Of a DNA stretch of 9,618 nucleotides, positions 36-8,612 are shown piece by piece. This stretch comes from a virus (taxonomy: Duplodnaviria; Heunggongvirae; Uroviricota; Caudoviricetes): IMG/VR virus record IMGVR_UViG_2734482579_000011. One strand, written 5' to 3'. Under the pieces are notes generated by a model that worked only from the letters and a program-made list of their open reading frames with translations, was not told where the DNA came from and did no database searches. The position numbers and the translations under genes were made by a program. How positions within the stretch are numbered: position 1 is the first letter of the stretch; each line of letters begins with the position of its first letter.

Positions 36-90
36 TGGAGCACCTCAAAAACACCATCATACACTAAATCAGTAAGTTGGCAGCATCACC
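1..90 (-). mobile_element. IS1 insertion sequence, partial (first 90 bp including the left terminal inverted repeat; body continues beyond the window start)
   Basis: Reverse complement of 1..90 reads GGTGATGCTGCCAACTTACTGATTTAGTG...CCAGTGGCTTCTGTTTCTATCAGCTGTCCCTCCTGTTC, which I recognise as the IS1 left end; the terminal IR is at 68..90 and the element boundary is 90/91. Confidence 0.92.
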
Positions 91-242
91 CCGCCACAGA
101 ACAATTATTGCTTTTGCCGTTGATGACAATAAAGTTTTTATCGCAGGCGTATACCACGGTGGGCAAATCTATGAAACCGATTTTTTATCCAGTGCACCGT
201 AAAACCCCCATCCTTCAGGGCGTGGCGGATATCAAACTTTGG

Positions 243-1325
243 TCATTTTCTCTGGCTGATCTTTACCGGATAACCATCCCGAAGATCAATTAAGTGCTCC
301 GGTTCAGAAGCAAACCATGCATAAGATCCCCACGCCAATTCTGGTATTGCCTTTTTAAAAGGCAGAGCACTTCTGTCCATAAATGCCGTAAGGAATGCAA
401 GATTTTTCTCGCTGAACCCAGCGTCAATAGCCAAATGAGTGAGAGTAACTTTTCGTTCCCTGTTTATAGGCCCATCTGTCGCAACTACTTCAGTGAAAAC
501 TACAAGCATGTCCGAACCCGTTCGGTCCTCTCCCAAATCAATCAAAATAATATCTGGAAGTGCTTTTGAGGCATCAATATTCAGCCCCAATGCTTTTGCC
601 AATACATCATCCTGAGCAACAACTTTATTCCCGGATTCAGACAACCAGAGCACAGTTGGATTCTTAAGAAAATTAGGAGCAAAAACTTCGATGACGGCCT
701 TAGCTATTGTACTTGACGGGCCCGGAGCTAAAGTTCTCTTCTCTCCATTTGGGAAAGTGACGACTACGGCATCAGCAGCAATCACTGCCCCTGATTTCAA
801 TAAACGCAACCTAGCAAGAGCGGCTTTGTTCAAATGATTTTCTTGCCAGGAACTTATTGCACTCAGCAGCGAATCTCCTTCAAGCCCGGCATCAAAGAGT
901 GCTGCAAAAGAGCGATTCAAACTGTAACGAGGACGAGAGGATGTGGTGGGTATACCTTTACGCTCAACAATTGCATTGCAAGGTATTAGGCCATTTTTTA
1001 TAGTTTCATCACGTATTGGCTCACGCGTATTTTCCGCATACCATGCATCAGCAGGCCTTATCTTTTGTTTAGAGAAAGTCATCTTTACCCAGCTTTCTCT
1101 GGACGCATCATCAGTAAGAGCAGCCTGCGAATCTCCCATACTTACAACCTGGCTGGGCCTTATCCATCGCCCCAGCCCCTCAACCGCACCAGCATAAAAC
1201 ATGACAAAAATTGTTTTTGCAGCTATTTCCCGAATTAAATATCCACGATTCTCAGTCCCTTCAGGGAAAATTAATTGTAATCTTTCCCGGATAACATTCA
1301 ATGGGGGAACAACAGGCAGATTCAT
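243..1325 (-). CDS. Putative type II restriction endonuclease (360 aa), partner of the upstream methyltransferase; possibly BsuBI/PstI-like, family unverified
   Basis: ATG at 1325..1323 overlaps the methyltransferase TGA (1324..1322) as ATGA, so the two are co-directional and translationally coupled. Contains LPDIILIDLGED...VVFTEVV, a possible degenerate PD-(D/E)XK core. Lower GC than the phage genes. Family is a recollection-based guess. Confidence 0.6.
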   Translation of the reverse strand: MNLPVVPPLNVIRERLQLIFPEGTENRGYLIREIAAKTIFVMFYAGAVEGLGRWIRPSQVVSMGDSQAALTDDASRESWVKMTFSKQKIRPADAWYAENTREPIRDETIKNGLIPCNAIVERKGIPTTSSRPRYSLNRSFAALFDAGLEGDSLLSAISSWQENHLNKAALARLRLLKSGAVIAADAVVVTFPNGEKRTLAPGPSSTIAKAVIEVFAPNFLKNPTVLWLSESGNKVVAQDDVLAKALGLNIDASKALPDIILIDLGEDRTGSDMLVVFTEVVATDGPINRERKVTLTHLAIDAGFSEKNLAFLTAFMDRSALPFKKAIPELAWGSYAWFASEPEHLIDLRDGYPVKISQRK

Positions 1326-3154
1326 GCAATCATCACTCCATAGAAACCAGCGATAGTTCTCTCAATAATCCGTCTGTGGACGCCAGCATCAATTAACGAT
1401 TGAATCTCCATCACCTGCTCCAGAGAAGGCAACGGGATTGAATTCAATTCATAGGCCGAAACAGCAACACTTCCGCTTATACACCTGAACGCCCGATCGA
1501 CAACATGCGAATTAAGTAGCATATCAATAACATCAGGGCGAACCGCAGAGAACAATCCGTTTGAATATACAATATTAATATGGTTTTCAACTACTACGCC
1601 ACCAGTTTCATCTATAAATCCCTGAGGTAAAATTGCCGCTAAAATCCTTCTGTCCTGTTCCTTCGATGTTGTCCGCTGAACAAGCACACATTCAGATTTT
1701 GTCACAAGGAAACCCTGTTGTGGGGTTATATCGATATAGGGAACATGATTTTTTCTGTCTGCACTAAAACGAAAACCAGCTGAAGTTATTGATTCCGCCC
1801 AGACTAATGGGTAGCTATTTTTTCCTTTCGTCGTACGCAACTGCGACTTAAATCGATTCCAGACTAACTGACCTGTAGAGACTGAGTATCCCAGATCAGC
1901 TAAACGCGTAGACATCTGTTTTAATACATTAAGAAAACAGGCATCATCTTTAACGCGTGGCAAAAGCCACGTTGCTCCACCTTTTTCTATATCAACATTA
2001 CCTATTTTCTCAATTTTTGCTTTGTTCAACCCCTTAGGGACAAGTGAGGATACCTGGGCCCGAACTTTATGTTCTCCCGCCTTGAATGCTGTCAACATTG
2101 TTTCCTGGAGAACATCGTCAAAGACCCCATCCCTGTCAGTGACGAAATCAAGGGCATACGGAGTAGTTTTTTCGGTCAAAAGGGTTCGCAGCGCGGTGAA
2201 ATACTGCCCACCAAGAAAAGAAGTTGGCGTAAGAAATGCAATAACTCCTGTTTTCTCTTTAACCATGCGAACAGCTAAGTCGGTGAACAATCCATATAGA
2301 TTTGCATGACCAAATAACGAACGAGAATATTTTTCTCTCGTTTTAATATCGAGAGTGACACGTCCGTAAGGCGGATTCCCTACCACAAGATCATAACCAG
2401 AAAATTTATCTTGCTGAAGCGCATCAGCAACAATAATTGTATCTTCAGGCAATCTACGTTTTACCTTTACACATAGTGGCATTAGTACAGATTCGAGCAA
2501 TACCAAACTCATCCAAGCCGCAAATGGATCGATCTCTATCCCCTTTAAACGACGACTGATTCTCCTCAACATCCATTCAGGGGAAGACCCCTTGTCTTTT
2601 TTTAACATTCGAATGGCTACTGGTGCCAAAAATGCACCGCCACCACACGCAGGATCAATAACCGATGCATGAGAAAAATCAACACCAGACTTTTCAGCCA
2701 GGTCCAAGAGACGCGCTACCAAAGGTGGGGGGGTATAGTAAGCCCCCAATTCCGAACGGTAAGCGGATGGCAGCATTACCGTATAAATTGACCCAATCAG
2801 ATATCCAGCGTCCTCCGCCGGAAATTGAGCAATAAGCTCACCTGTTCGTTCAGCGAGCTCGCGTGCATCACATGGAATGTCTTCTATGTAAACAGTGTGC
2901 GGTACTGCCCTCATTTTAATGCTGCTTTTTTGCTTTTTTGCAAGGGTATCCCAATATGCAGCTACGATGCTGAAGCAGTATGAGCGGGCATGCATCAACC
3001 TTGACTGCCCGGTTTTGTAATTGCCCGCATAACCTTTGGCCATGGCTTTACAAGTTTGATATCTTTCCAGATTAGAAAACTCATTATCTGTAAAAAAATC
3101 AAAATGTTGCACATTCATAATGTAAAATCCTAATGTATCAAACATGCGGGCCAT
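1322..3154 (-). CDS. Gamma-class N6-adenine DNA methyltransferase (610 aa), Eco57I/TaqI-like catalytic domain with a C-terminal target-recognition region
   Basis: Motif order in the translation: GAYYTPPPLVARLL (motif X), VIDPACGGGAFLAPV (motif I, AdoMet binding), VVGNPPYGR (motif IV, NPPY). About 330 aa follow as a presumptive TRD. Alternative in-frame ATGs at 3145 and 3118; the start is uncertain. Confidence 0.9.
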   Translation of the reverse strand: MARMFDTLGFYIMNVQHFDFFTDNEFSNLERYQTCKAMAKGYAGNYKTGQSRLMHARSYCFSIVAAYWDTLAKKQKSSIKMRAVPHTVYIEDIPCDARELAERTGELIAQFPAEDAGYLIGSIYTVMLPSAYRSELGAYYTPPPLVARLLDLAEKSGVDFSHASVIDPACGGGAFLAPVAIRMLKKDKGSSPEWMLRRISRRLKGIEIDPFAAWMSLVLLESVLMPLCVKVKRRLPEDTIIVADALQQDKFSGYDLVVGNPPYGRVTLDIKTREKYSRSLFGHANLYGLFTDLAVRMVKEKTGVIAFLTPTSFLGGQYFTALRTLLTEKTTPYALDFVTDRDGVFDDVLQETMLTAFKAGEHKVRAQVSSLVPKGLNKAKIEKIGNVDIEKGGATWLLPRVKDDACFLNVLKQMSTRLADLGYSVSTGQLVWNRFKSQLRTTKGKNSYPLVWAESITSAGFRFSADRKNHVPYIDITPQQGFLVTKSECVLVQRTTSKEQDRRILAAILPQGFIDETGGVVVENHINIVYSNGLFSAVRPDVIDMLLNSHVVDRAFRCISGSVAVSAYELNSIPLPSLEQVMEIQSLIDAGVHRRIIERTIAGFYGVMIA

Positions 3155-3368
3155 AACATCTCATGGTGGCGCATAGCAAACTGGCCCGAAGAATATCACG
3201 CACCAAGTCGATCTCATAACCCGTTATGACAATAAATCTTTGTAGCTGAACTCACTTGGTGATTTGTCAATCATTCCTGGCCTCCAGTTCGTCCTGAATC
3301 TCTTTATCGAGTTCACCGTATTTGTTAGTCCTCATCACTCACGACTTGACTTCCAGAAATAACCTTGA

Positions 3369-3725
3369 TTATTCGGGGCTATATTTTGTCACCCTGCGTA
3401 TCCGCGCTTTCGCATTACGCTCAATCTGGATTAGCTTTTCTATATTTTTTCGCCTTTCCCGCTCCTCCTGGCGCAAGAGCCTTACATCATCTGCCAGTCT
3501 GGTTTCTCTTTTCGCCACAGAGAGCATCCAGTCAAATGGCTCCACAACTGCACCGCAAATTTTACAGCGGACCTGACGCTCTTTTTCGTCAACCCGGACA
3601 GAAGCGTGATGGCAATATGGTCTTTCCGATGGCTCATAAAGAAAATTAACCTGATTACGAGGGTTATCCTCTTTTACCGGAAATAAAACAATATTGCTTA
3701 ACTCATCTTCTGGTTTTATTTCCAT
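3369..3725 (-). CDS. Hypothetical phage early protein (118 aa) with a putative zinc-ribbon (C-H-H...C-x2-C) and a basic, coiled-coil-like C-terminus
   Basis: ATG at 3725..3723 is preceded by a strong SD (minus strand AAGGAGAGGAGC then ATG). The track ORF extends to a GTG at 3782, but the internal ATG with SD is preferred. Cys/His cluster PYCHHASV...CKICGAV. Confidence 0.65.
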   Translation of the reverse strand: MEIKPEDELSNIVLFPVKEDNPRNQVNFLYEPSERPYCHHASVRVDEKERQVRCKICGAVVEPFDWMLSVAKRETRLADDVRLLRQEERERRKNIEKLIQIERNAKARIRRVTKYSPE

Positions 3726-3782
3726 GCTCCTCTCCTTTGATGCGAATGCCAGCGGTAATTGAAGCCTGATAGCTAATTTCAC

Positions 3783-4205
3783 TCACAGTACCGCCTCCTG
3801 AAAATCACCCTGATAGAAAGCCGGTACACGCTGCATAACTTCACTCTTCCGGCACTCGCGACAGATTATGTTCTGATGTCTGTCGTAGCGGCGTATTTCT
3901 CCGTCCGGTAATGACCAGATAAGGTCCGGATCAACCACAGATGGTTTCTTCAGCTTTGCCCTCGAGAGTTTTTTGCGGGCGTTTTGCCAGTCCTTACGAG
4001 CCTGTTCAGACGGGAATAACCCGTAGCCAGAGTTGTATACATCCCCACTGGCAACCAGCTCTCTGGCGAGAACGCTTATTAAATATCTTGTCGCCCCGGT
4101 TTTAGCTTCCAGTTGTCGTAACGTCTCGCGCCCACTCTGGCGTACGAGTTCAACAACCTGCCCCTTAATTTTTTCCCGCTCTTCCTGTGTAAATACTTTT
4201 GCCAT
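3783..4205 (-). CDS. Hypothetical phage early protein (140 aa), HTH-like N-terminus, CxxC near the C-terminus
   Basis: ATG at 4205..4203 (MAKVFTQEE...); the track ORF begins 5 codons upstream at a TTG. Ends ...NIICRECRKSEV.... Co-directional and tightly packed with flanking genes. Confidence 0.65.
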   Translation of the reverse strand: MAKVFTQEEREKIKGQVVELVRQSGRETLRQLEAKTGATRYLISVLARELVASGDVYNSGYGLFPSEQARKDWQNARKKLSRAKLKKPSVVDPDLIWSLPDGEIRRYDRHQNIICRECRKSEVMQRVPAFYQGDFQEAVL

Positions 4206-4220
4206 AAGCGCCCCCGGCAA

Positions 4221-4946
4221 TCACTTTTCCGACACAATACGACCGGAGGAATCGACAATCTGTCGAACAATATCCCGGTGCTTGTTCAGCTCCCGCAACG
4301 CGGCGCAGACACGCTCCCACTTCTGGACATGACTTTTCGCCCGACGCAGTTCGCGGTTTGCCATATGCAGCGATGGTAAAACCAGGTCATCCGCTTGCGT
4401 TTCGGTGAACGATGGCAACGACTGCACAATGTCCGCCACAGTTTCTGTTTTAATTTCTTCCTGTGTTGCAGCTTCCTGTACCGGTAACGCAACACCTGCT
4501 GGCTGAGGAAAGACTTTACCATCCGTTTCCGCTATGGATGCGGCTTTCGGCTCTGCCGGTAAATCAGCGCCCGGTATGCAGTACCGAAATTTACCGCCCT
4601 GATTCACGCGAATCAGACGCCCTTTGCTGATTGCCATGGCCAGCGATGAATTCGCCCGGCGGGAGGTAATCCCGAACATCAGTGCCAGCTCATCCGCCGT
4701 TTGTGGGCCATGTTGTTCAATCGCCTCAGTCAGCATTTGCGCTGTCACTTTCGGTACCGGTGACACTGGTTCACTTTCACCAGCCTGAATCAGCCACCAC
4801 ATCGAACCCTTGTTATCCGCTTCACCACGGCGCTTCAGTTTCCACAGTTCGTTGACCGCATCTTCACGGCTGATTCCAAGGCGGGACGCCACCACATGTG
4901 AAGAGGCTCTTTTCAGTGCTTTCAGTGCGTCAAATACAGTTTCCAT
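4221..4946 (-). CDS. Hypothetical phage protein (241 aa) with two predicted winged-helix-like segments; resembles DUF1627-type proteins found after replication genes in enterobacterial prophages (recollection)
   Basis: ATG at 4946..4944 with SD GGAGGA 7 nt upstream, 21 nt after the DnaC-like TAA stop. Similar segments ...[23 protein letters not shown]... and ...[25 protein letters not shown].... Confidence 0.7.
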
Positions 4947-4967
4947 TAAAACATCCTCCAACAAAAA

Positions 4968-5509
4968 TTACTTCACAACTCCCGGAAAGCTGACATTTGA
5001 ACGCCAGCTATCCCAGTTAAACGTCACCCACCGACAACCGTTCATGGTCATGCGGTCCATAATCCTCTCACCAAGAAGCGTGCTCATTGCGGCATGATTC
5101 AGGTTTGTTAACATCCCGACACTGCACAGTGATGCTGTCCGGCGATCAATTATCTGGTGCAATACCACCTGCTCGTTTTTCGTCTCCCGCTGAATGCCTA
5201 TTTCATCCAGGACCAGCAAATCAACCCCGCAAAGCTCCTGTAAAAATTTTTCACCGGATTTGCCGTTGTCGTAGCTGTCATGCAACACGCTCATGACATC
5301 AGACTCGGTGACGATAATCACGCTGCGCCCCTTCGCCATCAGCCGGTTACCCATCGCCGCTGCAAGGTGATTTTTCCCGGTGCCGGTTTTACCGCTGAAC
5401 ACAAAATTCGTGCACCCGGTCATCAGTTCGTCAGCTATGGATTTGGCCTGGCTCAGCGCGTATTTTTGCCCGTCGTTCTGCACCTGATAATTCGCAAACG
5501 AGCATTTGC
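4968..5509 (-). CDS. DnaC-like helicase loader / IstB-like AAA+ ATPase (phage replication protein), 5' end lost in the N gap
   Basis: Walker A FVFSGKTGTGKNHLAAA and Walker B DLLVLDEIG in the translation; the ORF is open up to the N run at 5510, so the true start lies in or beyond the gap. Confidence 0.85.
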
Positions 5510-5751
5510 NNNNNNNNNNNNNNNNNNNNNNNNNNNNNNNNNNNNNNNNNNNNNNNNNNNNNNNNNNNNNNNNNNNNNNNNNNNNNNNNNNNNNNNNNNN
5601 NNNNNNNNNNNNNNNNNNNNNNNNNNNNNNNNNNNNNNNNNNNNNNNNNNNNNNNNNNNNNNNNNNNNNNNNNNNNNNNNNNNNNNNNNNNNNNNNNNNN
5701 NNNNNNNNNNNNNNNNNNNNNNNNNNNNNNNNNNNNNNNNNNNNNNNNNNN
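5510..5751. other. Run of 242 N (assembly gap or masked sequence)
   Basis: Directly visible. It interrupts the junction between the initiator and the DnaC-like gene; true length and content unknown. Confidence 0.99.
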
Positions 5752-6739
5752 TTACCGGGAGCAACCAGGGGTTTTCAAAATTCCGGTCCGGCCCAAAAAA
5801 CGTCGTCGCTCGCTGAACAAATTCCGTTCCCGCTTTCCCGGTCGCCGCCAGGTATCTCGCGTAACGCCTCACACCATCCAGCATGGTCTCTGGTGGCACC
5901 CCCTCGCGCAATCTGGCCTTCCAGGCACTGAATGCGGATTTCTTCGGGTTTGCCCCGGCACGCAACGGGTATTCCCGCCAGACCTGTTCGAACACATCCG
6001 GATAATCCACTCGTCCCACAGGCTGCCCGGTGTTTTCCGGGGCTACCCGATCGGCTTCCCGCTGAATGGCGGAATCGGCTTCAGGCTGCTGCAGTTGGAG
6101 TGATTGCTCCGGCCTTGCGGTCATCACCTGCTGCACAGCGCCCGAATCGGCTTTCAGCGCATACGCTGAATCGGCTTCCGGTGTCGAGCCTGCTGGCTGA
6201 CCAGGATTGACGGTCTGAACATCCCCTGCCTGGTTCGTGGCGTTTTTTACGCCATGGACCATAGTGTTTTGATCTTCTTTATCTGTATCTTTATCTGTAT
6301 CTGTCGTGACTCGTCGTGACATGTGCGTGACATTTCGTGACGCGCCGTGACAATCGCCATTTTGTTCCCGCTTTCTTTCCCTCTCTCGCTGCGCCCTCTT
6401 GCGCTCTGCAGGAGATTTTGCGGTTTGCGAAATATTGCCGTTGTCCTCTTTAAGCACCTGGCGTTTTTCCCATCCAGTGATTAAATCACCATCAAGTACC
6501 CGCCCCTGCATCGTCTGCAAAATTGAATCAATTACCTCTTCTGTCACGTCGAGCGCACTTGCCAAATCTTCTGTCGTGACATCAATGTGACCTCGCGTGA
6601 CATTTCGTGACGCGCTCACCAGGAGGTGGATATACACTGCCATCACTGTTGCAATTGGCTGCCCTGACACCCTGGCAATTGTTCGCCACTTAGGGTCATT
6701 TGGCATGTCATGCCATAATCTGAGCCAGGCGTTAGCCAT
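5752..6739 (-). CDS. Phage replication initiation / replisome-organiser protein (O-like; YdaU-type context), 3' end lost in the N gap
   Basis: ATG at 6739..6737 with SD-like AGAGGTGA upstream (GTG alternative at 6745). Directly upstream of the DnaC-like gene, as in lambdoid replication modules. Acidic/TDKD linker and internal iterons. The track ORF's tail beyond the gap (to 5453) is a frame artefact. Confidence 0.7.
6277..6304. repeat. Tandem 12-bp repeat (CTTTATCTGTAT x2 plus partial) in an AT-rich stretch immediately beside the iterons
   Basis: Directly visible; encodes the TDKDTDKE acidic linker on the minus strand. It lies 3' of the iterons in the gene's direction, like the AT-rich region of lambda ori. 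Confidence 0.6.
6305..6351. repeat. Iteron-like array: five CGTGAC hexamers at 10-11 bp phasing inside the initiator gene (candidate phage ori)
   Basis: CGTGAC begins at 6305, 6315, 6326, 6336 and 6346. On the coding strand the hexamers fall in different reading frames, so this is a DNA-level periodicity and not a peptide repeat. Confidence 0.55.
6543..6615. repeat. Second iteron-like cluster (GTCACG/CGTGAC units at about 10 bp phasing) containing an exact 21-bp copy of part of the first array
   Basis: GTCACG at 6543; CGTGAC at 6575, 6596 and 6606; TGTGAC at 6586. The 21-mer GCGTGACATTTCGTGACGCGC occurs at 6325..6345 and again at 6595..6615. Confidence 0.5.
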
Positions 6740-7532: not shown

Positions 7533-7595
7533 AATAGCACTGTTATTTTTAAAAGTAAATAGTGATACTATTTCAAAGTGATTAGCAATCTTATT
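7533..7595. promoter_or_regulatory. OR-like operator cluster with divergent promoters between the cro-like and repressor genes
   Basis: Three 15-bp imperfect palindromes about 24 bp apart: AATAGCACTGTTATT (7533..7547), AATAGTGATACTATT (7558..7572), and weaker ATTAGCAATCTTATT (7581..7595). Candidate minus-strand promoter (-35 at 7554..7559, -10 at 7531..7536) and plus-strand promoter (-35 TTCAAA 7572..7577, -10 TAGAAT 7595..7600) overlap them. Confidence 0.55.
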
Positions 7596-7607
7596 AGAAT
7601 TGGATGT

Positions 7608-8108
7608 ATGAAAAGAAAATCATTGTCAGACACCGACCTCAACGCCGCCAGAAGACTGAAAGAAATCTGGATGGCAAAGAAATCTCAGTTGGGATTGACT
7701 CAGGAACGTGCGGCGGAAATTATGGGGTTTTCAACACAAGGGGCGGTAAGTCACTACCTAAATGGTCAAACCCCACTAAACCTTGAGGCTGTTCTAAAGT
7801 TTGCTGGCTTACTGAAAGTTCCCCCTGAGTCAATCAGGCCAGACATGGTAGATTTGCTGCAAATTGCAAGGATGTATTGTCGAGAACCACAGCAAGATAA
7901 CATAGTCGCATTACCAGCAGACACAGAACAAACAGAGGATGAACTACCGTTTGCCGTAGAGCCGATGGAACGAGATTTAATCCATACGTTCAGAGCTTTT
8001 CCGAAAGAAGATCAAGAACACATGCTTCAGGAGATGAAAGATAAAAAAGAATCAATGGATCGTACGGTTGCGCGGTGGTTAGCTGCACAAAAAGGCCGTC
8101 GCGCCTAA
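7608..8108 (+). CDS. paaR: CI-like HTH repressor without a peptidase domain (166 aa); probable PaaR-type regulator of the downstream toxin-antitoxin pair and candidate prophage immunity repressor
   Basis: HTH segment LGLTQERAAEIMGFSTQGAVSHYLNGQTP; ATG at 7608 (the track ORF starts at a GTG at 7578). First gene of a three-gene plus-strand operon; symbol assigned by recollection of the CP-933P paaR2-paaA2-parE2 locus. Confidence 0.7.
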   Translation: MKRKSLSDTDLNAARRLKEIWMAKKSQLGLTQERAAEIMGFSTQGAVSHYLNGQTPLNLEAVLKFAGLLKVPPESIRPDMVDLLQIARMYCREPQQDNIVALPADTEQTEDELPFAVEPMERDLIHTFRAFPKEDQEHMLQEMKDKKESMDRTVARWLAAQKGRRA

Positions 8109-8127: not shown

Positions 8128-8322
8128 ATGAGTACAGTCCTTTCCCCAATGGTTTCAGAATTTGAGACAGTTGAGCAAGAAAATAGTTACAACGAATGGC
8201 TGCGGGCCAAAGTAGCAGCAAGCCTCGCGGATCCCCGCCCGGCGATTCCGCATGATGAGGTAATGGCGGAAATGGAACAAATTATTGCCCAAATTGCTGC
8301 TGCAACTCACAGAGGTGAATAA
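8128..8322 (+). CDS. paaA: Small antitoxin (64 aa) of a ParE-family toxin-antitoxin pair, PaaA-like
   Basis: SD AGGAGA 9 nt upstream; its TAA stop overlaps the toxin ATG (TAATG); 19-bp gap after the repressor gene implies co-transcription. Confidence 0.7.
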   Translation: MSTVLSPMVSEFETVEQENSYNEWLRAKVAASLADPRPAIPHDEVMAEMEQIIAQIAAATHRGE

Positions 8323-8612
8323 TGTTACCCGTTTTATGGCTACCATCTGCTCGTGATGATTTGCGCCAGATCGTAGCCTACATAGCTAAAGAAAATCCCG
8401 CGGCAGCACGCAGAATGAAAATTCGAATTGAAACATCCGTTTTGCCGCTCACAGAGCATCCTTACCTGTATCCTCCAAGCGAGCGAGTTCTTGGTCTTCG
8501 TGAAATTGTAACTCATCCTAACTACATCATCCTTTACCGAGTAACAGCATCAAGCATAGAAGTAGTAAATATTGTGCATTCTCGAAGACAGTATCCAGGC
8601 AAAAACAGTTAA
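8322..8612 (+). CDS. parE: ParE/RelE-superfamily toxin (96 aa)
   Basis: C-terminal signature ...NYIILYRVTASSIEVVNIVHSRRQ typical of ParE/RelE toxins; overlaps the antitoxin stop by 1 nt; an intrinsic terminator follows. Confidence 0.8.
   Translation: MLPVLWLPSARDDLRQIVAYIAKENPAAARRMKIRIETSVLPLTEHPYLYPPSERVLGLREIVTHPNYIILYRVTASSIEVVNIVHSRRQYPGKNS

Follow-up and report, generated by a model that had tools for sequence, protein, structure and literature searches.

Three closely spaced, co-directional minus-strand genes at positions 3369-4946 of the window (the whole 9,618-nucleotide stretch of viral DNA that was analysed) encode proteins of 241, 140 and 118 aa (P1, P2 and P3). They belong to three very common families which, in the lambda-like prophages of E. 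coli and Shigella, come after the DNA-replication genes. The reading we favour, with a probability of roughly 0.6, is that P1 and P2, as accessory proteins of the replication module, fill the "ren slot", P3 belongs to the nin region, and the trio consists of independent genes and is no defence system. We infer the functions of all three; a literature search found no functional study for DUF1627/YdaW, DUF977/LygF, DUF7167 or the PHROG families. The three genes and their surroundings are as follows.

4968 to 5714, minus strand: DnaC/IstB-like helicase loader (PF01695, 5.6e-18 on the readable 171 aa)
4221 to 4946, minus strand: P1, DUF1627/Rac YdaW family, 241 aa from ATG (PF07789, phrog_630, AF2)
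3783 to 4205, minus strand: P2, DUF977 ("LygF"), Ren-family winged-helix protein, 140 aa (PF06163, phrog_142)
3369 to 3725, minus strand: P3, zinc ribbon plus long basic helix, 118 aa (phrog_1621, AF2)
3369 to 3383, no strand: mosaic junction, homology to ordinary E. coli prophages ending within P3, about 14 nt from its 3' end
243 to 3154, minus strand: type II RM cassette, context outside the three-gene feature (Pfam, PADLOC)
1322 to 3154, minus strand: type II methyltransferase (PADLOC MTase_II, 1.8e-300)
243 to 1325, minus strand: BsuBI/PstI-family endonuclease (PADLOC REase_II, 2.8e-128)

The layout agrees with that described in the sequence-only reading, namely three tightly packed co-directional genes with ribosome-binding sites between a helicase loader and an RM cassette; the upstream loader is DnaC/IstB-like, and the downstream cassette comprises a type II methyltransferase and a BsuBI/PstI endonuclease. 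Shine-Dalgarno sites are present for P1 (GGAGG 8 nt upstream, 21-nt gap from the loader stop codon), P2 (GGGGG upstream, 15-nt gap) and P3 (AAGGAGAGGAG upstream, 57-nt gap), and the NCBI annotation of a locus that is 90-95% identical has the same three starts and lengths. Longer versions from TTG or GTG starts (247, 145 and 137 aa) were rejected because neither ribosome-binding sites nor the N-termini of distant homologues support them. The N-terminal part of the loader falls in the masked N run at 5510-5751, and we infer its end at 5714 from a 248-aa full-length homologue in the related locus L175. All three proteins are under purifying selection, as indicated by dN/dS values against relatives of 0.21-0.28 for P1, 0.13-0.28 for P2 and 0.09 for P3. 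Scans of positions 3000-5100 returned no promoter-like site and three terminator-like sites, which are no more than chance would give and all fall on the non-coding strand. Rfam gave no RNA family over the whole window, and we found no conserved binding site or RNA element. Neither a sequence search against solved structures nor an NCBIfam scan gave a match for P1, P2 or P3.

P1 matches the full length of PF07789 (DUF1627; 5.9e-93; score 309.2 bits, cut-off 28.1; positions 1-155 of the 155-position model) and phrog_630 (1.7e-121), and these profile matches place it within DUF1627/YdaW, from which it differs in nothing of substance. The two winged-helix-like segments proposed earlier are borne out as two winged-helix domains in the AF2 model and by Foldseek: a first winged helix (residues 1-52), a linker and a second winged helix (66-124) are followed by an acidic disordered stretch (131-190, pI 4.1) and a basic C-terminal helix (191-240, pI 10.8). 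The Foldseek search of this model against the PDB returned generic wHTH and tandem-WH matches only; for ScpB, the values were E 2.8e-3, TM 0.21-0.32 and rmsd 14 Å. A low-confidence linker connects the two domains, and their relative position is therefore not predicted. A list of predicted transcription factors whose function is unknown includes E. coli YdaW (PMC9308461). P1 also matches PHROG 142 weakly (1.9e-4). An hhalign comparison of P1 with P2 was not significant, and we therefore do not claim that the two are paralogues.

For P2, the match to PF06163 (DUF977) again covers the whole model (2.2e-30; score 105.9 bits, cut-off 22.1; positions 1-134 of the 134-position model), and the profile assigns it to this family with no difference of substance. 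An earlier study had identified DUF977 as a winged-helix domain that also occurs in fusions to Fic domains (PMC2686095), in agreement with the HTH-like N-terminus noted before. Over their full lengths, P2 and lambda Ren both match phrog_142, "Ren-like exclusion protein" (2e-46 and 1.6e-41, respectively). The CxxC that the sequence-only reading had also pointed out is unlikely to form a zinc site by itself, since P2 has only two Cys residues and the first of them is Phe in lambda Ren. The name "LygF" is a locus name carried over in phage records and nothing more.

P3 matches phrog_1621 (1.1e-54), as did all 87 diverse relatives tested, and PHROGs 8538 and 4865 are grouped with it; the Pfam and NCBIfam scans gave no family above cut-off. 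An exhaustive search found at least 1678 clusters at 50% identity in this large, unnamed family. The acidic N-terminal part carries a conserved ELxNVVxFP motif and is followed by a putative zinc ribbon, CxH-x13-CxxC, in which C38, H40, C54 and C57 are invariant or nearly so (alignment A1), and by one long, nearly invariant basic helix (residues 63-115, pI 10.5) that ends in the nearly invariant NIEKLIQIERNAKARIRR. The earlier description of P3 as a zinc ribbon with a basic tail is thereby borne out at the sequence and model level. The very strong conservation of the helix surface across genera suggests a conserved partner. The AF2 model (pLDDT 74.8) had no Foldseek match in the PDB or BFVD at E <= 0.001. 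The similarity to the TFIIB-type zinc ribbon (PF08271) is below threshold (21.6 bits against a cut-off of 29; Foldseek E 0.44). A DksA/TraR-like identity was rejected, as there is no Pfam match and the DksA/TraR coiled coil precedes a C4 finger in another domain order; an Ogr-like identity likewise lacks Pfam support and has a different domain order. The sequence-only reading had been unable to assign a function to any of the three proteins, which proved too pessimistic at the family level, since P1 belongs to DUF1627/YdaW, P2 to DUF977/PHROG 142 and P3 to PHROG 1621. The profile searches that it proposed supplied families for P1 and P2, but none in Pfam for P3 and none in PADLOC for any of them, and the fold comparison that it also proposed yielded generic winged helices for P1 and nothing for P3.

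The genomic context was compared in about 235 related prophage loci. Most of them are close relatives from "best 80" lists, and the fractions given here carry no phylogenetic correction. P1, P2 and P3 occurred in nearly every combination, always in constant order. P2 is directly upstream of P3 in 45/70 loci, and just 15 of those 45 also contain P1; P1 stands upstream of P2 in 36/75 loci and P3 downstream of P2 in 32/72, and the complete order P1>P2>P3 was present in only 7 of the 72 P1-anchored loci. We also found P2>P3 without P1, P1>P2 without P3, and P1 alone. The three genes thus assort independently and do not obligately co-occur, so that the co-occurrence analysis suggested in the sequence-only reading gave no sign of a unit kept together. 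They are common early phage families with no conserved linkage to one another or to defence genes, although not families of known housekeeping function. A helicase loader directly precedes P1 in 66/67 related loci, and these loaders belong to two unrelated families (lambda-P-type in 35, DnaC-type in 31); directly upstream of P2, we found either an O-like initiator (39) or P1 (36) in all 75 related loci.

In temperate phages of Enterobacterales, the P3 family has its place between replication genes and Q. The homologues from Kluyvera, Erwinia, Photorhabdus and Pantoea lie directly upstream of Q antiterminator genes of four different PHROGs; they are immediately before Q in 6/6 non-Escherichia loci, and the stop and start codons overlap once. 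In E. coli and Shigella, Q is about 3-5 kb from P3 with varying genes between them, and the usual downstream neighbour of P3 is DUF7167 (59/88 loci). Distant family members have many different neighbours, according to the alignment A6 scan of mostly enterobacterial relatives.

All E. coli matches to 3369-4964 begin at query base 15, and the C-terminal tail of P3 is unlike that of its relatives. Pieces of the three-gene region are found in 4278/5426 complete E. coli genomes, whereas the RM and ParDE island to the left of the junction (91-3368) is found in 2/5426. The cassette was present in 6/235 related loci, in all of which P3 is 96-100% identical and separated from the methyltransferase gene by a fixed 218-nt spacer. 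The island is best explained as a recent, rare insertion without a functional tie to P1, P2 or P3. Because the cassette is a rare insertion here, its proximity is no evidence of a defence role, contrary to what its neighbourhood had first been taken to suggest, and the trio should no longer be treated as a candidate defence module.

On the reading we favour, the three open reading frames would be independent accessory genes of a Rac/YdaS-YdaT-type lambdoid prophage, probably in Shigella sonnei, located in its delayed-early rightward operon, and would be transcribed along with the replication genes after induction. P1 and P2 would fill the ren slot, that is, the site directly downstream of the initiator and helicase-loader genes, as lambda ren does, and by analogy their mode of action is most likely like that of lambda Ren. 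Their targets during early lytic growth may be DNA, proteins of the machinery for replication and exclusion, or both, and such binding would allow phage replication to be maintained in a cell with another prophage's Rex-type exclusion system. P3 probably dimerises through its long helix, and its likely ligand is nucleic acid or else a conserved protein of the host or the phage. The lambda precedent is described in the supplement of 10.1101/2021.04.19.439022: lambda ren overlaps O and P and is co-translated with both, a ren gene is part of every initiator/helicase-loader module, growth of ren mutants on Rex+ lysogens is poor and suppressors of this defect map to O and P, and O and Ren are bound by RexA and RexB in two-hybrid assays. 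The anti-restriction role considered in the sequence-only reading, here widened to anti-exclusion, is retained for P2 only, through its homology to lambda Ren, mutants of which are excluded by Rex; it is given up for P1 and P3, and no family such as ArdA, KlcA/ArdB, Ocr or Ral was found in the Pfam, NCBIfam and PHROG scans of P1-P3.

An unlikely alternative is that P1, P2 and/or P3 regulate transcription of the phage programme, with P3 acting at the early-to-late switch together with or upstream of Q, where its basic helix could bind RNA or DNA. The MarR/ArsR-like winged helices of P1 and P2, the inclusion of YdaW in the list of predicted transcription factors, the highly basic and nearly invariant helix of P3 and its place before Q outside Escherichia are consistent with such a role, and the earlier suggestion of regulators is plausible as far as it concerns regulator-like DNA-binding proteins. 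However, the distance from Q and the variable intervening genes in E. coli and Shigella, the diverse neighbours of distant P3 relatives and the failure to find a conserved binding site or an RNA element argue against it, and the position last before Q may only mirror the mosaic layout of the nin region. It is quite unlikely that the three are host-takeover or superinfection-exclusion factors whose action on host targets (such as replication, division or RNA polymerase) would be independent of phage replication. Factors of this kind would be comparable to other small early lambdoid proteins. This possibility would fit their location in the early operon, their dispensable-type, patchy distribution, the PHROG category of phrog_142 ("moron, auxiliary metabolic gene and host takeover") and the conserved surface of the P3 helix, but P1 and P2 strictly adjoin replication genes, whichever type these are, an arrangement that speaks for the replication module over a host target, and Pfam, NCBIfam and PADLOC revealed no likeness to known takeover or exclusion proteins. 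A more speculative proposal, which we regard as a long shot, has two separate parts: the zinc ribbon and the nearly invariant, arginine-rich helix (ERNAKARIRR) of P3 would bind either RNA polymerase or a nucleic-acid element, be it RNA or DNA, at the early-to-late switch, which would explain its place before Q genes of four families outside Escherichia, and the DUF1627 and DUF977 proteins of the ren slot could be diversified counter-exclusion factors. If true, the slot would hold a set of such factors matched to the exclusion systems of different resident prophages.

The possibility that the trio is the small defence module proposed in the sequence-only reading, or an anti-defence module, and works with or regulates the RM cassette, for example with P3 controlling the methyltransferase and endonuclease genes, is highly improbable and already largely refuted by distribution. 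The trio does physically adjoin the cassette, P3 and the spacer are conserved in all six RM-bearing loci, and the RM genes might be read through from upstream, as no promoter-like site lies between P3 and the methyltransferase gene. Against this, the scan of PADLOC-DB 2.0 gave no match for P2 and P3 and a single chance-level match for P1 (SWIM_XIII, E 0.0099, 12.5 bits); the genes assort independently and lie in an early lytic operon without an internal promoter-like site; P1 is missing from the RM-bearing loci L017, L021 and L332; P3 is usually followed by DUF7167, and the mosaic junction cuts its 3' end. P3 was also rejected as an RM controller (C) protein, having no helix-turn-helix of that kind and belonging to a family that occurs overwhelmingly without an RM cassette.

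As a discovery, the region carries little weight: about four in five complete E. coli genomes contain pieces of it, and public databases already list proteins 96-100% identical under DUF1627, DUF977 and "hypothetical protein". The useful outcome is a negative one, namely that the RM neighbourhood is no pointer to defence. Of modest value is the very wide distribution of the ren slot beside lambdoid replication genes and of the zinc-ribbon/basic-helix family of P3, which together represent a long-standing small gap in lambdoid phage biology.

Compared with known systems, P2 resembles lambda Ren in its MarR-like N-terminal winged helix, in its place in the early rightward operon beside replication genes, and in the C-terminal motif N-[IL]-[IV]-x-x-E-C-R-x-S-x-x-M-x-R-V-x-A-x-Y, which reads NIICRECRKSEVMQRVPAFY in P2. 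P2 differs from lambda Ren in about 40 inserted residues that separate the winged helix from this motif, and in a second Cys, which makes the CxxC. The direct similarity (blastp 1e-5, hhalign 84.7% probability) is significant over the 24-residue C-terminal motif only, and lambda Ren falls below the Pfam DUF977 model, so that the link between the two proteins is made mainly via their shared PHROG. The window further differs from lambda in that P1 stands between the loader gene and P2, the replication module is O-like/DnaC-like instead of O/P, and there are no rexAB-like genes, their position being occupied by a PaaA2-ParE pair. P1 and the YdaW of an intact Rac phage share 80% identity, and the gene order ydaU-ydaV(DnaC)-ydaW-lygF is the same there as here. 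The DUF1627 model spans only residues 76-230 of P1, leaving its first winged helix outside.

The gene content around the three genes P1, P2 and P3 identifies the window as the immunity-to-replication-to-nin segment of a Rac-type lambdoid prophage, and the locus does not depart from the usual lambdoid layout. Its features are as follows.

4221-4946, minus strand: P1, 241 aa from its ATG
3783-4205, minus strand: P2, 140 aa from its ATG
3369-3725, minus strand: P3, 118 aa from its ATG
upstream of P1: DnaC/IstB-like helicase-loader gene, partly masked by a run of N
upstream of the three genes: O-like initiator gene, YdaT-like gene and Cro-like gene
7578-8108, plus strand: CI-like repressor gene, divergent, upstream of the three genes
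downstream of P3: type II methyltransferase gene and BsuBI/PstI-family endonuclease gene (RM cassette)

The run of N (242 bases, 5510-5751) hides part of the loader and its junction with the O-like initiator, so that a mechanical ORF list fuses or truncates both genes. The best protein match (99%) comes from Shigella sonnei.

P1, P2 and P3 are genuine protein-coding genes. As the sequence-only reading described them, they are co-directional and tightly packed, with gaps of 21, 15 and 57 nt in the order P1, P2, P3 and Shine-Dalgarno-like sequences (GGAGG, GGGGG and AAGGAGAGGAG, respectively) before the ATG codons. NCBI annotates the same three proteins, at the same lengths, in an E. coli locus that is 90-95% identical, dN/dS against relatives is 0.09-0.28 for each gene, and P3 can be aligned at 45-70% identity across genera with saturated synonymous sites. 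Proteins 96-100% identical had already been deposited and homologues are called hypothetical in every phage record; the three are already known, as uncharacterised families. That reading could assign none of them a function, but families were found for all three: DUF1627/YdaW, DUF977 with the Ren PHROG, and PHROG 1621. The folds it proposed, two winged-helix-like segments in P1, an HTH-like N terminus in P2 and a zinc ribbon with a basic tail in P3, were borne out by the matches and models below. Sequence comparison linked none of P1, P2 and P3 to a solved structure.

Judged by its sequence, P1 belongs to DUF1627/YdaW: it matches the whole Pfam DUF1627 model (309 bits) as well as PHROG 630, and shares 80% identity with the YdaW protein of an intact Rac phage, in which the order is ydaU, ydaV (DnaC-like), ydaW, lygF. 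The AlphaFold model (mean pLDDT 62.6; 70-85 within folded parts) predicts a winged helix of three helices (residues 1-52) joined by a short linker to a second winged helix (residues 66-124) and, beyond an acidic disordered stretch (residues 131-190, pI 4.1), a basic helix of 50 residues (pI 10.8). Foldseek returned only generic ArsR/MarR-type winged helices and tandem-winged-helix proteins, ScpB among them, with low TM-scores.

P2 matches end to end the Pfam family DUF977, a domain earlier recognised as a winged helix (PMC2686095). A further match is to PHROG 142, "Ren-like exclusion protein" (2e-46), which Ren from the lambda record matches over its full length (1.6e-41). Compared directly, P2 and lambda Ren are significantly similar only in a C-terminal motif, NIICRECRKSEVMQRVPAFY versus NLVFKECRQSAAMKRVLAVY (blastp 1e-5; hhalign probability 84.7%, E 6.7e-6); P2 carries an insertion of about 40 residues relative to lambda Ren, which, unlike P2, falls short of the DUF977 model. 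P2 and lambda Ren have a PHROG and a motif in common; on these grounds, and by its position, we treat P2 as a Ren-family protein and member of DUF977, not as an orthologue with proven identical function.

A profile match places P3 in PHROG 1621, a group without known function; the protein lies outside all Pfam and NCBIfam families, and its match to the Pfam TFIIB zinc ribbon is below threshold. Residues C38, H40, C54 and C57 are invariant in 33 Enterobacterales homologues, as are F15 and P16 of the N-terminal ELxNVVxFP motif and most of L84-R110 (NIEKLIQIERNAKARIRR). The predicted structure consists of a small beta ribbon followed by a single helix (residues 63-115), and had no significant structural match in PDB or BFVD. 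An exhaustive profile search (E <= 0.001) collected 1678 clusters at 50% identity, none in a Pfam family, with a common core of CxH...CxxC, DPFD and a helix ending in ERNxKARIRR. All 87 tested members match PHROG 1621 and most also match 8538 and 4865, three PHROGs with no known function. P3 represents a large zinc-ribbon/basic-helix family that has no Pfam model.

Of 5426 complete E. coli genomes, 4278 contain pieces of the 1.6-kb three-gene region (median two copies) and 168 contain P1, P2 and P3 all together. The three genes and their neighbours were also mapped in about 80 viral-contig loci per anchor gene (about 235 in all), the locus percentages referring to "best 80" lists of close relatives with relatedness uncorrected. 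The order P1, P2, P3 is constant throughout, though the genes assort freely. Among P3-anchored loci with enough upstream sequence, P2 lies directly upstream in 45/70 and P1 too in only 15 of these 45; P2-anchored loci have P1 upstream in 36/75 and P3 downstream in 32/72; the 72 P1-anchored loci read P1>P2>P3 in 7, P1>P2>other in 20 and P1>other in 45. The constant feature of P1 and P2 loci is the left-hand neighbour, a helicase-loader gene for P1 in 66/67 loci (lambda-P-family in 35, DnaC/IstB-family in 31) and an O-like initiator (39) or P1 (36) for P2 in 75/75.

The right-hand neighbour of P3 is usually an acidic DUF7167 protein (59/88 loci). This very acidic 60-aa protein (e.g. 5711-5893 in the related locus L001) is the most constant P3 neighbour in E. 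coli and Shigella, above P1 or P2; in the window the RM island takes its place. P2 was not detected in the P3-bearing species-representative genomes of Kluyvera, Erwinia (three), Photorhabdus and Pantoea, where a Q-like antiterminator gene always comes next after the P3 homologue (about 10000-11100 in the 20-kb loci L010-L013, L015 and L016). These Q genes span four PHROGs (304, 943, 79 and 753), and in L013 the stop codon of the P3 homologue overlaps the start codon of the Q-like gene. Farther out in the family, the nin-region genes beside the P3 homologues vary (Ea22-like, RusA, hok, NinB, Q). In Shigella flexneri (L006 and L008:10505-11191), the gene after P3 encodes a 228-aa protein that by eye looks like a QueH-type (DUF208) epoxyqueuosine reductase and may be further cargo at the same mosaic junction.

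Of the roughly 235 loci, 6 carry the methyltransferase and endonuclease genes, always just after a P3 copy 96-100% identical; with their ParDE neighbour (window 91-3368), these genes were found in 2 of 5426 complete E. coli genomes. In one of these genomes, which has no DUF1627 gene at the locus, the initiator gene is followed in turn by a frameshifted loader gene, DUF977, P3, the methyltransferase and endonuclease genes, an oppositely oriented ParE/ParD pair, DUF968, RusA and Q. The similarity between the window and ordinary prophages ends within P3, about 14 nt before the 3' end of the gene, and the C-terminal tail of P3 is unlike that of its relatives. The rarity of the RM genes, this end point and the divergent tail indicate that the RM and ParDE island is a rare insertion into the variable part of the nin region, and it replaces the usual DUF7167/Ea22/hok segment. 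The prophages that carry the PstI/BsuBI-type cassette in their nin region are otherwise common. At the left end, window bases 1 to about 120 match an IS1 end in thousands of E. coli records and the ORF at 77-202 (+) represents the leftover C-terminal part of a ParE-like toxin gene, so the island was cut there by IS1; in loci L017 and L332 the toxin gene is intact beyond the endonuclease gene, with a ParD antitoxin gene. A chimeric ORF in another locus (L019:6572-7009) joins the first ~70 methyltransferase residues to residues 44-118 of a P3 copy, which suggests that the cassette and a second P3 gene of the contig were brought together by deletion or recombination.

A joint module, whether for defence, as suggested earlier from the position beside the cassette, or for RM regulation, is very improbable: none of the PADLOC models was matched by P1, P2 or P3, and free assortment, the scarcity of the RM genes and a junction inside P3 itself all contradict it. 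A crude consensus scan detected no promoter-like site within or just after the three genes, in keeping with their being expressed from the early lytic promoter and not in the lysogen. The stretch from P3 to the methyltransferase gene likewise showed no sigma-70-like promoter. We favour, with a probability of about 0.6, independent early accessory genes, P1 and P2 being Ren-like occupants of the position directly downstream of the initiator and helicase-loader genes (the "ren slot") and P3 a nin-type gene. The winged helices and the adjacency of P3 to Q outside Escherichia would also suit a regulatory role in the phage programme, P3 being active near Q, but the variable neighbours of P3 elsewhere make this unlikely. 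Slightly less likely still are host takeover or exclusion factors with host targets, which would not explain why P1 and P2 lie so strictly next to replication genes.

As to how Ren-like occupants of the ren slot might work, Thomason and Court, in Phage in 2022, reportedly saw Ren alleviate host phenotypes that depend on RexA/RexB. The ren gene of lambda overlaps with O and P, together with which it is translated, and a ren gene is said to be present in every initiator/helicase-loader replication module; growth of ren mutants is poor on Rex+ lysogens and suppressors map to O and P, two-hybrid assays show binding of RexA and RexB to O and Ren, and a replication role for ren was suspected by the authors (10.1101/2021.04.19.439022). 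Plaque formation does not require ren (PMC10695390). By analogy, P1 and P2 would be winged-helix proteins co-produced with the replication proteins that bind DNA and/or replication or exclusion proteins, and phage replication could then continue in cells carrying the exclusion system of another prophage. We regard this Ren-like mechanism as a tentative proposal, somewhat short of an even chance. P3 would act separately, probably as a dimer that forms through its helix and binds nucleic acid or a conserved protein.

Directly downstream of the CI-like repressor gene and co-directional with it, the window encodes a PaaA2-type antitoxin (PF21217, 3e-23) and a ParE toxin (PF05016, 1.8e-17) at 8128-8612 (+). 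In lambda this position is occupied by rexA-rexB. The arrangement in the window resembles the paaR2-paaA2-parE2 arrangement known from E. coli O157 cryptic prophages.
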